This document shows positions 4,903 to 34,007 of a stretch of DNA of 42,227 nt, in pieces (the stretch's first letter is position 1; each line of letters opens with the position of its first letter). Location of the stretch: the NCBI GenBank assembly GCA_038874655.1, contig JAVZBY010000002.1:1-42227 (forward strand). Direction: 5' to 3'. The translations under genes and the position numbers were made by a program. This DNA comes from Candidatus Woesearchaeota archaeon (GTDB lineage Archaea; Nanobdellota; Nanobdellia; Woesearchaeales; GW2011-AR15). The notes under the pieces were generated by a model. That model was not told the origin of the DNA. It did not search any database and was given only the letters and a program-made list of their open reading frames with translations.

Positions 4903-4959
4903 TTTTATAATTCTATTACATTACTTTATTTTTTAAAAACTTTTTATAAACTTAATTAT

Positions 4960-5032
4960 AGCCCTGTGGTGTAGCGGTCAATCATGCAAGGCTCTGGACC
5001 TTGAGACCCAGGTTCGAATCCTGGCAGGGCTA
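4960..5032 (+). tRNA. tRNA-Gln (anticodon CTG)
   Basis: Acceptor AGCCCTG/CAGGGCT, anticodon arm CAAGG-CTCTGGA-CCTTG, T-loop TTCGAAT; A1-U72 typical of archaeal tRNA-Gln; no encoded CCA. Confidence 0.97.
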
Positions 5033-5126
5033 TAAACAAGAAGAATAGCAATGACGAGATAGAAAATGCTAATGGAATAAACATTTTCTTTACCTAGTAT
5101 GGCTATTTTTTAATTATAATCTTTAA

Positions 5127-29747: not shown

Positions 29748-29797
29748 ATCTCTTTTTTTAATATTAAAGTTGAAATATTCTAATTTAAATTTATAAA

Positions 29798-29870
29798 TAG
29801 CCCCGCCAGGATTCGAACCTGGGTCCCCTCCTCCAAAGGGAGAGATGATTGGCCGCTACACCACGGGGCT
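29798..29870 (-). tRNA. tRNA-Gln (anticodon TTG)
   Basis: Acceptor AGCCCCG/CGGGGCT, anticodon arm TCTCC-CTTTGGA-GGAGG, T-loop TTCGAAT. Confidence 0.96.
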
Positions 29871-29926
29871 ATAAACAAAAAATAAGAAAAATCAGTATCT
29901 TAAAAACTTTACTAAATATTTTTAAG

Positions 29927-30720: not shown

Positions 30721-31707
30721 TTATCCTTTTATTATTTTTCTTACTGATTCAATAATCTCTTCTGCAGTAATACTTGCCATACAAGGCGGAATTTGTGAAT
30801 TAGCATAAGCCTCATATATACATCCAGACTTGTCGTTTATCCTGATAATTTCTCTCCCAAATCTTTTTACATAATCTTCTATATTCCAGTATCCATGTAT
30901 GCCACAAAAACCAATTTCACAATTAAAAGTTGTTTTAATAACATGATTTCCAAAATAAGTAACAACTTCTGGATTAGAACTTCCAAAAACAACAACAACT
31001 TTGTTTTTATTACTGTTATTAGTTCCTATCTCATAAGGTGTACCTTGTAAAACACCATTTATCATATGTAAAAGCCCAGAATCAACACCAATAAAAGCAT
31101 CACAGGCATATAAAATAGCACATAATTCTCTTAAATTATCATATCTTGGCAATAAAAAAGGATGAGCAAAACCAGATATGCCCCTAATAACTTCATCTAA
31201 TGTTTTTTTAGGAAGACTTCTATTTTTTACTGATGCATATGGTGCTATCACAACTACAGGTAAATTATTGTTTTCTTTACTAATTTCATTAATCTTAATT
31301 TTTCCTTGCTCAACTTCCTCAGGTGTTAAAATAATTTTTACATCATCTCTTGAAGGTAGAATTTTTATTCCTGATTTTTCAAATAAAGTATAAGCCATCC
31401 ATTCACATAAATGACCAAACCTATCTTCTTCTCCAGTAAATTTTTTAGGAAGCATTGTTGTATGAGGAAGCCATTTTAAATAATCACTTAAATCAATAAC
31501 ATTTTTAGATGATTCCCTTAATTCCCCTATACCAGACAAGTGTTTTAATAAAAGTAATGCTTGGCGTGATGAGATTATATTTACTATGTAACCTATTTCA
31601 TTTAATCCTTGGACTAAAGAAGAAGCAATAATAGTATCTCCTATTGCACCAGTTAGTTTTAAAGTTAATTCTTGATTATTATCTGGCATAGAAAATATTA
31701 ATAACAT
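30721..31707 (-). CDS. Glycosyltransferase family 9 (heptosyltransferase-like)
   Basis: GAIGDTII, FIGVDSGLLH, VVVFGSS.P, C-terminal C...C...CMASIT. Confidence 0.78.
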   Translation of the reverse strand: MLLIFSMPDNNQELTLKLTGAIGDTIIASSLVQGLNEIGYIVNIISSRQALLLLKHLSGIGELRESSKNVIDLSDYLKWLPHTTMLPKKFTGEEDRFGHLCEWMAYTLFEKSGIKILPSRDDVKIILTPEEVEQGKIKINEISKENNNLPVVVIAPYASVKNRSLPKKTLDEVIRGISGFAHPFLLPRYDNLRELCAILYACDAFIGVDSGLLHMINGVLQGTPYEIGTNNSNKNKVVVVFGSSNPEVVTYFGNHVIKTTFNCEIGFCGIHGYWNIEDYVKRFGREIIRINDKSGCIYEAYANSQIPPCMASITAEEIIESVRKIIKG

Positions 31708-31890: not shown

Positions 31891-32913
31891 TTATTTTATT
31901 ATTTCAATACCCAAGTCATCTGAAAATTCTTTTACTTTCTGTGTTTTATCATTTTTTCCTAATATCCATGGACTCTTTACACCAGTTACAATAGTCATAA
32001 CTGTTACTTTTCCTTTCATGTCATCTAAAACTCTGGCTCCCCAAATTACATTTGCATCTTCATCTAAACTTTCTGTGACTAATTCACCAACTCTATTAAT
32101 TTCTTCTAATGTTAAATCAGGGCCACCTGTGACATGAATTAATGCACCAGTAGCACCTTCGTAATTAATATCTAATAATGGATTGCTCAAAGCACCTCTT
32201 ACAGCTTCTTCAATTCTATTATTTGTGTCAGAAGCACCTACACCAATAGCAGCAACACCACCATTAGTCATTATTGCTTTAACATCTGCATAATCCAAAT
32301 TTACTAAAGAAGGTAAGGCAATTGTTTCTACAATTCCTTTAATCATAGTTGCAATTAATTCATTTGCAACAGCAAAAGCTTGTCTTATAGGAAGATTGCC
32401 AGCAATTTGAACCAATCTATTATTATCAATAACAATAACAGTATCACAATTTTGTCTCAATTGATTTAAACCAAATTCTGCTTTATCAACTCTTGCTCTT
32501 TCAATTTTAAATGGCATTGTTACAGTTCCAATAACAATAGCACCCATGCTTTTAGCAACTTCAGCTATAATTGGAGCTGATCCTGTTCCAGTGCCACCTC
32601 CCATTCCAGCACATACAAAAACCATGTCTGCTCCTTTTAAAGCATCTTTAATTTCATTTAATTGTTCTCTAGCAGATTCAGCACCTTTTTCAGGAAAACC
32701 ACCACAACCTAATCCTCTTGTAGTGTCTTTTCCAATTAAGAATTTTCTATCAGCTTCAGTTATACTTAAATGCTGTTGATCTGTATTACAAGCAATAATC
32801 TCAGCACCTTTAATGCCTTTTTGGTAAAGCCAATTTACCATATTATTTCCAGCACCACCAGTGCCAATAACCTTTATAGTTGCTTGACTTGCCAAACCTT
32901 CAAATTCTTCCAT
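31891..32913 (-). CDS. ftsZ: Cell division protein FtsZ (FtsZ2-like)
   Basis: GGAGNN, NTD, AGMGGGTGTG, NLDYAD, IWGA, SPWILG tail; likely ATG at 32913 after AGGTGGGG (track GTG start 32922). Confidence 0.97.
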   Translation of the reverse strand: MEEFEGLASQATIKVIGTGGAGNNMVNWLYQKGIKGAEIIACNTDQQHLSITEADRKFLIGKDTTRGLGCGGFPEKGAESAREQLNEIKDALKGADMVFVCAGMGGGTGTGSAPIIAEVAKSMGAIVIGTVTMPFKIERARVDKAEFGLNQLRQNCDTVIVIDNNRLVQIAGNLPIRQAFAVANELIATMIKGIVETIALPSLVNLDYADVKAIMTNGGVAAIGVGASDTNNRIEEAVRGALSNPLLDINYEGATGALIHVTGGPDLTLEEINRVGELVTESLDEDANVIWGARVLDDMKGKVTVMTIVTGVKSPWILGKNDKTQKVKEFSDDLGIEIIK

Positions 32914-33069
32914 TGCCCCCACCTTGTCTTTGTGTTTATTTTTTATATTTTTTATGAGTATATTCTTTTTATATTTTTTAAAATATATCTTTTAAACTAT
33001 ATATAAAAATTTATATTTTACTCTAACAAAACCTTTATATACTTTTACGGAATATACTCTACTTAGAAA

Positions 33070-33168
33070 ACGCCAATACGCCAAAACTATTATAAATTGC
33101 TTGACGCCAATCAAGCTTATTAATTTATTAACGCCAAAATTATATTCTAAGGTTTACGCCAATAAACC
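33070..33168 (-). repeat. Five ACGCCAA (minus strand UUGGCGU) repeats, two as exact hairpin loops; candidate sRNA or operator array
   Basis: Copies at 33070, 33078, 33104, 33131, 33156; GCTTGA-CGCCAA-TCAAGC and GGTTTA-CGCCAA-TAAACC. Confidence 0.8.
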
Positions 33169-33326
33169 CCTCATTATTTTTATTAATTAAATTTCTATAT
33201 AAATCTTTTTATTTTTTGATATATATTTTTAAGTATATATTTAATAGATTTTCTTCGTCTAAGAAATAAAAAATAGAATAAAAAATTCATTTTTTCATTA
33301 AATTAAAAATCTAATTATTTTTAATC

Positions 33327-34007
33327 TCATTTTTTCTTCTTAGTTATTGCTTCTTTACCTAAATCAACACCGAACTTTATTAATCTAGTTAATTTGTCAA
33401 ACACTACAGGGTTTTGCATTACTCTAGCAATGTTTGTTATCTTTCTACCATAACTTTCAAAGAAACATGTATTCTCTAATGTATATCTAATTGGAGCAGG
33501 AACAATTTCATCAGGATAACCAATTGGTAAAATTGCTTGTGGCCTTACATCCTCAGGAGCATTTATAACCCTTCTAACCATATCGTCGTCAAAAGCACTT
33601 ACCCATGTAGAAGCTAAACCTAATGCATGAGCAGTTAACAACATATTTTGTATTGCAGCAGCACAATTTTGGATAACATATAATCTTTCTCCTCTTACAC
33701 CATAAAACATCTTTGTTTTTTCAATCTCAGCACATACAACTATTAAAACAGGAGCCTCAGCTATCCACATCTGTTGCATAGCAGCTTCAGCAAGTTTTTG
33801 TTTATTATCATTATCTTTAACAATAATAAATTTCCAGCTTTGTAAATTTCCAGCACTAGGAGCATATCTTCCAGCATCTAAAATAATTCCTAAAATCTCC
33901 ATTGGAACATCTTTTGCCATAAACTTTCTAATAGATCTTCTAGTAGCAATTGCTTCAAAAACATTCATCTTTACAGCAGAAGGATTAATATCACTTTCTT
34001 CCATCAA
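33327..34007 (-). CDS. Nitroreductase family protein
   Basis: TRRSIRKF, APSAGNLQSW, QNMLLTAHALGL, IGYP. Confidence 0.94.
   Translation of the reverse strand: MMEESDINPSAVKMNVFEAIATRRSIRKFMAKDVPMEILGIILDAGRYAPSAGNLQSWKFIIVKDNDNKQKLAEAAMQQMWIAEAPVLIVVCAEIEKTKMFYGVRGERLYVIQNCAAAIQNMLLTAHALGLASTWVSAFDDDMVRRVINAPEDVRPQAILPIGYPDEIVPAPIRYTLENTCFFESYGRKITNIARVMQNPVVFDKLTRLIKFGVDLGKEAITKKKK

Follow-up and report, generated by a model that had tools for sequence, protein, structure and literature searches.

A conserved array of loop-presenting repeats upstream of an FtsZ2-like gene in Woesearchaeota-type archaea, probably a control element for division

What might a cluster of five identical heptamers be doing in the spacer ahead of an archaeal ftsZ gene? 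The question is raised by a stretch of 42,227 nucleotides (hereafter the window) from a Candidatus Woesearchaeota archaeon (assembly GCA_038874655.1, contig JAVZBY010000002.1, positions 1 to 42,227), in which the heptamer ACGCCAA is repeated between a nitroreductase-family gene and an FtsZ2-like gene. To our knowledge, the timing and dosing of FtsZ-based division in archaea are largely unknown, and CdrS is the one dedicated regulator known. Here we report that the array is probably a previously undescribed control element for division. On the sequence evidence, it is best read as a cis-regulatory locus for the FtsZ2-like gene, common to the whole lineage of Woesearchaeota-type DPANN archaea at the level of the class.

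The array in the window and in relatives

The array (33070-33162) consists of five heptamers, ACGCCAA on the plus strand and TTGGCGT on the minus strand, at 33070-33076, 33078-33084, 33104-33110, 33131-33137 and 33156-33162, with start-to-start spacings of 8, 26, 27 and 25 nt and all within 93 bp. The window contains six copies of ACGCCAA against 0.52 expected (sd 0.64), a number reached in none of 100 dinucleotide-preserving shuffles; the sixth (31561-31567, minus strand) lies within the next gene. The genome scanned (1,263,075 bp on 17 contigs, 24% G+C, 97% complete) holds 38 copies on both strands, and the array is its sole cluster with at least two copies in 150 bp. The five positions listed in a preliminary description of this DNA were thus confirmed, as the only such cluster in the 1.26-Mb genome.

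That description had also placed two of the copies as exact 6-nt loops on 6-bp stems of differing sequence, and both hairpins were recovered. Hairpin A (33099-33116) has the arms gcttga/tcaagc (33099-33104 and 33111-33116), and hairpin B (33151-33168) the arms ggttta/taaacc (33151-33156 and 33163-33168); each presents CGCCAA on the plus strand, or UUGGCG on the minus strand. Hairpin A is present in the predicted minimum free energy (MFE) and centroid folds of both strands, and hairpin B is the counterpart of a conserved promoter-distal 'first' hairpin of the relatives (GGGGTT... context). Among the 137 TTGGCG/CGCCAA hexamers of the genome, at least five perfectly complementary flanking pairs occur only in hairpins A and B; two others have four such pairs, both inside open reading frames (ORFs).

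Conservation was assessed in the region upstream of the best ftsZ orthologue from 30 relatives, all Woesearchaeota-type DPANN archaea, and from 80 further genomes, one per family of the order; 104 of the sampled regions were at least 300 nt long. A few unpublished genomes (G139, G150, G130, G434, G227) are inside the search tallies, and no specific claim rests on them. The 104 regions contained TTGGCG in ftsZ sense 189 times and CGCCAA twice. At least two copies were found in 65 loci, and at least two in the opposite orientation in none. The number of copies per locus was 0 in 35 loci, 1 in 4, 2 in 24, 3 in 29, 4 in 10 and 5 in 2, which puts the window at the top of the range among its relatives. 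Of the 39 loci that have fewer than two copies, many keep the same design with another loop (TTGGCT, GTGGCA, TTGGGC, TTGGTT, TTGGGT, TGGGGA or TTGGTAG); the copies within one such genome are alike, and TGG is mostly retained. A genome of the same genus as that of the window (G002, locus L003) has TTGGCT in all four copies, a concerted change within the genus. That the copies of one genome switch together points to one co-evolving reader.

Another sample, of 67 loci from named records and overlapping in part with the first, gave 122 TTGGCG and no CGCCAA, against 7 and 5 in the 450 nt that follow ftsZ, taken as a control. Among 30 loci (23 families) from the remaining orders examined in this class, at least two copies were present in 10 and CGCCAA in none; TTGGCG was again the top hairpin loop (12 vs 1), and the full architecture was also found there. 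A search independent of ftsZ, for pairs of ACGCCAA in 301 genomes, hit the region upstream of ftsZ in at least six other genomes (G048, G054, G086, G088, G104 and G122), as established by comparing coordinates. Each AT-rich multi-copy array in five relatives and in 30 loci found with TTTTTGGCGAAAA adjoins ftsZ; matches of TTTTTGGCGAAAA away from ftsZ occur singly or as chance pairs, almost always in sequence that looks coding, and were dismissed as chance. A scan for the motif in other promoters and leaders had been proposed earlier: the multi-copy motif is confined to the locus upstream of ftsZ in each genome examined, without enrichment near other genes, and accompanies ftsZ regardless of the identity of the upstream gene. 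Judged on these comparisons, the array is real and far from chance, conserved across a class-level radiation and bound to one gene.

Stems, promoters and strand

Among the perfect hairpins of the 104 regions (6-nt loop, stem of at least 5 bp), TTGGCG is the loop 91 times and the next commonest loop occurs three times. All six flanking Watson-Crick pairs are formed in 71 of the 188 copies with enough flank, five in 50 and four in 22; among 132 copies elsewhere in the window's genome, six are formed in none and five in one. Covariation was scored over an 8-pair helix in 150 of the 188 copies, drawn at random without selection for pairing. The proportion of paired cells was 72.7% (43.9% when shuffled) and the covariation score 0.660 (0.191 when shuffled), as high as which none of 500 shuffles came; slid registers gave 0.11-0.25. 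These stem statistics were computed without a tree and are uncorrected for the relatedness of the genomes. The outer stem positions show all four Watson-Crick pair types, and at the inner positions the 5' arm favours T and the 3' arm A. About a quarter of the copies (45 of 188) are unstemmed; among them is a last copy of conserved position, which a conserved box (TTCTAAG..AG) follows after 1-3 nt.

As far as these alignments go, the array shows the textbook pattern of loop conservation with stem covariation, both of which the preliminary description had proposed to look for upstream of ftsZ in relatives, and the conservation of the motif extends order-wide and beyond. The inter-copy spacing in relatives is freely variable, and unpaired copies together with irregular spacing fit single-stranded display, not a phased operator. 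Conserved spacing without covariation, named in that description as the pattern that would favour a DNA operator, was not seen; with irregular spacing and covarying stems, the same reasoning favours a presented-loop structure over a phased DNA operator.

The array lies between two facing modules, each composed of a transcription factor B recognition element (BRE) and a TATA box. The distal module P1 (33196-33210, minus strand; aaaaaga TTTATATA), already proposed as a minus-strand BRE-TATA, is present and conserved in relatives, and is directed into the array and towards ftsZ. A loose sense-oriented TATA precedes the first copy in 60 of 65 loci (consensus AtAgAAAtaTTTAtATA), and a strict BRE+TATA on the distal side is directed into the array in 39 of 65 loci and away from it in 5. 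On the ftsZ side, P2 (33027-33048) is a conserved TATA (TTTATATA on the plus strand, 33034-33041) whose canonical BRE side faces the array. Its consensus from 45 loci, aACTA.TATATAAA.aTTTcG, has one TATA flanked by a BRE on either side; in its canonical reading, CGAAAnnTTTATATA, this TATA belongs to the strand opposite to ftsZ; a strict BRE+TATA on this side is array-directed in 36 of 65 loci and ftsZ-directed in one. The TATA ends are 41 and 44 nt from the outermost motif copies. An inverted repeat around the P2 TATA was not significant overall (mean 3.7 vs 3.4; at least 5 in 13 of 51 loci).

A second TATA at 33007-33000 had been considered for ftsZ; a TATA-like run does exist there, but the conserved TATA is the one at 33034-33041. 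Loci of the L155 type leave too little space for a further promoter ahead of the ftsZ start codon, so that the outward face of the P2 TATA is most likely the ftsZ promoter. Bidirectional BRE-TATA-BRE promoters are known from Pyrococcus furiosus, with predicted starts about 50 bp apart and an antisense product that is thought to be noise (excerpts of PMC6640164). P2 is like them in having one TATA (33034-33041) with BRE-like sequence on both sides, and unlike them in that its inward side has the better and more conserved BRE, by the counts given above, and reads into a conserved structured array.

The minus strand, with UUGGCGU loops, had been taken as the acting strand, which is not better supported; the asymmetry of G.U and A.C mismatches in the ftsZ-proximal hairpin favours the plus strand. 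Read in ftsZ sense, the interior mismatches of this hairpin are A.C in 32 cases and G.T in 4, that is, mostly G.U on the antisense strand; at least two mismatches of the antisense G.U type occur in 14 stems, and at least two of the opposite kind in none. The distal hairpin has 18 G.U and 10 A.C mismatch cells, against 5 and 32 in the proximal one. The split per hairpin, antisense vs sense, is 19 vs 3 for the proximal and 5 vs 12 for the distal one (Fisher p 5e-5 on cell counts, uncorrected for relatedness). For the proximal copy, paired cells make up 72.9% in the antisense and 65.5% in the sense reading. An A-run of at least 5 in ftsZ sense, equivalent to a T-run after the last hairpin of an antisense RNA, precedes the first hairpin in 24 of 65 loci; a T-run of at least 5 after the last copy in ftsZ sense is present in 8 of 65. 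Differences in MFE per hairpin between sense and antisense are largely an artefact of loop and terminal-mismatch energies and were not used as evidence. For the ftsZ-proximal hairpin, the mismatch data favour the strand antisense to ftsZ (plus strand in the window), the strand evidence being mixed overall.

From the orientation of P2, the wobble asymmetry and the T-run, we infer a plus-strand RNA of about 115 nt (33066-33181) with two single-stranded copies, hairpin A, one single-stranded copy, hairpin B and a U-run. It is a plausible and the best-fitting transcript in the window. The run of five T just past hairpin B (33177-33181, plus strand) would be a possible oligo-T terminator of this putative RNA. 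The conserved box (33049-33068, minus strand; TTCTAAGTAGAGTATATTCC), 1-3 nt past the last motif copy and with the consensus TTCTaAg..ag in relatives, sits at the expected start of the putative plus-strand transcript from the P2 TATA. A sense transcript from P1 may be an alternative product of the locus.

Several further features were observed around the array. A 40-codon ORF with a TTG start (32992-33114, minus strand) overlaps it; because copy number and spacing differ among relatives, this ORF is taken as non-coding. In the contig of a related strain both flanks are kept and 257 other letters replace the 267 at 32924-33192, which indicates that the array region turns over faster than its flanks; four sets of DNA contigs compared with the locus gave nothing further. 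The ftsZ leader (32916-32935, minus strand), ahead of the ATG at 32913, comprises a conserved ACACAAAGAC (32926-32935) and a Shine-Dalgarno-like GGTGGGGG (32916-32923). A perfect complement of 10 nt links 33051-33060 (GAGTATATTC in ftsZ sense, in the conserved box) with 32956-32965 (GAATATACTC, just before the ftsZ leader). Long-range pairing between box and leader was rejected as a general feature: it reaches 10-11 nt in three loci of one family (the window, L006 and L011), and over 78 loci the mean is 6.1 vs 5.85 when shuffled. About 20 nt upstream of the distal TATA (about 33225-33245, minus strand) lies a palindrome, TATATT-N6-AATATA, found in 11 of 104 loci, mostly of the window's family, among them L003, L007, L008, L009, L012 and L013; with conserved arms and a free centre it looks like an ordinary dimer operator.

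Interpretation of the array and its alternatives

We see a roughly even chance that the array is a transcribed loop-display element read by one conserved putative factor. Enclosed by two facing BRE/TATA modules are two to five copies of a hexamer rich in G/C with the core UGG (UUGGCG in ftsZ sense and CGCCAA on the opposite strand), most of them 6-nt loops on stems that differ from copy to copy. The region would be transcribed, the hairpins would hold the hexamer single-stranded, and the hexamers would be bound by one conserved factor acting in trans (most likely a protein), several molecules at a time; this binding would set the amount of ftsZ product. The factor might be titrated by a small RNA that shares its TATA with the ftsZ promoter and is transcribed in the divergent direction, or binding might influence, in cis, the direction of the promoter or a long leader.

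A number of observations weigh against this interpretation. A look for RNA sequencing runs that cover the locus yielded none. TTGGCG is absent from 35 of the 104 loci, and a few of the 39 loci with fewer than two copies show nothing recognisable. Over all stems in ftsZ sense, G.T mismatches (28) are not commoner than A.C (35), unlike the G.U of typical structured RNAs. The distal hairpin is strand-neutral (paired cells 81.5% sense vs 80.2% antisense), and the loop-closing T.G pairs favour the sense strand (14 vs 0). The bias of the arms towards T on the 5' and A on the 3' side is equal on both strands, and the whole locus is symmetric, with its facing modules; both would also suit a DNA-level element read on both strands. 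Folding of the whole region in the window is no better than that of shuffles (z -0.11 for the minus and -1.04 for the plus strand), so that the case for structure rests on the comparison with relatives.

The symmetry of the architecture, the equal T/A polarity of the arms and the lack of an overall preference for G.U over A.C would all agree with an array of operators or cruciforms, in which a regulator reads TTGGCG on the duplex or on extruded loops and controls the flanking promoters, the transcripts being by-products. Such an array would also account for the fixed orientation of the motif and the constant place of the last copy, which is separated from the conserved box by 1-3 nt and from the P2 TATA by about 44 nt, and a gene for a winged-helix regulator is tightly linked to ftsZ in many relatives. 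Yet the arms differ within a genome and stay complementary, which a duplex binder that reads sequence does not need, and the copies are irregularly spaced; the linked winged-helix protein cannot be the reader of TTGGCG, since its presence does not track the array, and a domain of the E2F/DP type (PF02319) was not found. We consider a DNA-level array possible but doubtful. The array site resembles TTTGGCGC, which we take to be an E2F/DP-type site; an E2F/DP-like reader was dropped for want of a PF02319 match. Facing canonical modules in 39 and 36 of the 65 loci and the opposite strand signatures of the distal and proximal hairpins would also be expected of a switch by convergent transcription that needs no dedicated protein, in which complementary loops kiss, and polymerase collision and RNA duplex formation set ftsZ expression. 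UUGGCG fits the YUNR pattern, G/C-rich loops in DNA of 24% G+C would probably nucleate pairing well, and bidirectional BRE-TATA-BRE promoters are documented in an archaeon (PMC6640164, in the parts cited above). The complementarity of two strands is automatic, however, so that such a switch does not explain why the same hexamer is kept over more than 100 families and another order, and it also leaves unexplained that the copies of one genome change together; we consider it unlikely.

Other readings of the array are less probable still. The UGG retained through nearly all loop variants is the sole point for reading the loops as sensors of tRNA charging, in which uncharged tRNAs would be captured through pairing of their free 3' NCCA with UGGN; through such a multi-copy sensor, the nutrients that these host-dependent cells obtain from their host might be coupled to the transcription or translation of the division gene. 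The bacterial T-box leader makes a comparable acceptor-end contact, UGGN:NCCA. The array shares with it the UGG core plus one base, and has several identical loops instead of one bulge, without a specifier loop or a terminator/antiterminator pair; no T-box match was found with Rfam in the window. A tRNA sensor appears very unlikely. That the short repeats show dyad symmetry, lie in AT-rich DNA between genes and form the only such set of the genome could also suggest a replication origin or iteron array. This is extremely improbable: the sole Cdc6/Orc1 gene found lies on another contig (contig 1), the cumulative GC skew of the contig has no turn at 33 kb, the copies are all in one orientation rather than in two inverted sets around an unwinding element, and the array follows ftsZ whatever the upstream gene. 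A comparison with the DNA beside orc1 was uninformative, as no clear repeats were seen there. Many weak repeats are to be expected from AT-rich DNA, and the heptamers might be a chance, low-complexity or decayed mobile-element repeat, a view refuted by the comparative counts, with one array per genome at a constant locus, and thus of negligible probability. The coding sequence of ftsZ in 30 orthologues contained no conserved TTGGCG or CGCCAA as a base-pairing target. Mimicry of rRNA was rejected, the other weakly stemmed copies of the genome lying only in ORFs.

Among known regulatory RNAs, Rfam 15 gave no match at the gathering score in the window or in the loci of 13 relatives, and only chance-level hits at E up to 10 in 32850-33400. 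The comparison with the bacterial CsrB/RsmZ sponge RNAs made in the preliminary description holds for the presentation of one loop motif on differing stems; extra copies in single-stranded linkers and variable copy number are further likenesses. It does not extend to the motif and its partner: the loops of CsrB/RsmZ carry GGA (A(N)GGA) and those of the array UUGGCG or CGCCAA, and the CsrA/RsmA family (PF02599) had no match at E up to 1 in the 97%-complete genome, so that membership in this class was rejected. The array further differs in being archaeal, tied to one target gene, unique in its genome and known here from DNA sequence alone. Iron-responsive elements of eukaryotes, bound by IRP, combine a fixed 6-nt loop with free stems and occur in single or several copies beside the regulated gene. 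The array is like them in its fixed 6-nt loop and free stems, and has neither their CAGUGN loop nor their C-bulge.

The closest parallel in position is the cdrS/cdrL-ftsZ2 locus. According to excerpts of Darnell et al. (PMC7439475), CdrS and cdrS-ftsZ2 synteny occur in all major archaeal groups except DPANN, and in Euryarchaeota cdrS, a gene for a small ribbon-helix-helix (RHH) protein, is co-transcribed with ftsZ2; FtsZ1 and FtsZ2 have both been reported in DPANN (Liao et al., bioRxiv 10.1101/2020.06.04.133736, in part). Both loci would be dedicated regulatory units directly upstream of an FtsZ2-type gene, as far as the excerpts of PMC7439475 describe the former, one being an RHH protein gene and the other hairpin repeats without such an ORF. 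The absence of cdrS beside ftsZ, stated earlier, was borne out: no small RHH ORF lies between 32923 and 33326, and the seven RHH_1 matches of the genome are elsewhere, the nearest 17 kb off. Since the array holds the position of cdrS in a group reported to lack CdrS, it would occupy the regulatory slot of the FtsZ2-type gene.

A literature search on archaeal ftsZ, TTGGCG, Woesearchaeota and archaeal sponge RNAs, at the level of search results, found no description of the hairpin-repeat array. The array precedes an FtsZ2-like gene in the majority of the Woesearchaeota-type genomes sampled and also occurs in other orders; it offers a sequence-defined handle on division control where CdrS is reported missing (DPANN; excerpts of PMC7439475), and its invariant loop on free stems is a ready-made design for loop, stem and compensatory mutations. 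If it is a protein-binding RNA, archaea would have in it their first element of the kind that binds proteins through repeated loops, as well as a bait for a new division regulator; if it acts as DNA, it would be an unusual operator of variable-arm palindromes between two facing promoters. Either way, loop variants that switch in concert between genera provide a route to the reader by co-variation.

The ftsZ genes and their neighbourhood

The ftsZ gene of the window (31891-32913, minus strand) matches Pfam Tubulin (1.1e-47) and FtsZ_C (7.4e-33) and TIGR00065 (400.8 bits). A spacer of 404 bp, which contains the array, separates it from the upstream nitroreductase-family gene (33327-34007, minus strand), a neighbour conserved in no wider group than the family to which the window's genome belongs. 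Three ftsZ genes are present in this genome, and the array is found upstream of the window's gene only, the other two having plain promoters. The paralogue on contig 1 (24543-25559, plus strand) has 81% identity to the window's gene, and that on contig 4 (30120-31130, minus strand) is more FtsZ1-like, scoring 439 bits to FtsZ1 of M. jannaschii (1W58) against 325 bits for the window's FtsZ. Because the contig 4 paralogue is the nearer to FtsZ1, the window's gene is classed as FtsZ2-like by exclusion only, the comparison being with the FtsZ1 reference alone.

In many relatives a gene for a protein of about 180 amino acids with a winged-helix N-terminus is linked to ftsZ (for example L021:637-1173 and L024:555-1091 on the plus strand, and L023:2834-3364 and L030:2929-3459 on the minus strand). 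The protein has sub-threshold matches to TrmB, MarR and IclR-HTH. A profile built from four copies gave full-length matches in 62 of 131 genomes; coordinates relative to ftsZ were compared by hand in 61 of them, with one unpublished genome left out. The gene is directly upstream of ftsZ on the same strand in 27 of the 61, divergent within 600 nt in 9, 1-4 kb away in 13, just downstream in 2, and on another contig or with ftsZ not located in 10; it thus lies within about 4 kb of ftsZ in 51. In the genome of the window the only match is partial and distant, 82 kb off. As a reader of TTGGCG this protein was rejected, arrays of at least two copies being present in 37 of 46 genomes without the gene and in 25 of 44 with it. 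It is a good candidate for a division regulator in a lineage without CdrS.

The window also contains two tRNA-Gln genes, at 4959-5033 (plus strand) and 29797-29871 (minus strand), with the anticodons CTG and TTG. ARAGORN found 17 tRNA genes in the 97%-complete genome, with no encoded CCA and with ambiguous ends, and so gave no information on a tRNA sensor; so small a number suggests that many intron-containing or split tRNAs were missed by the program. Mislabelling or misbinning is probable for many of the contigs L184-L263 whose FtsZ is of the Woesearchaeota type (77-90% identical): a large share bear the title 'uncultured Methanosarcinales archaeon', another is called 'Alphaproteobacteria bacterium', and a further one 'Candidatus Aenigmatarchaeota archaeon'.

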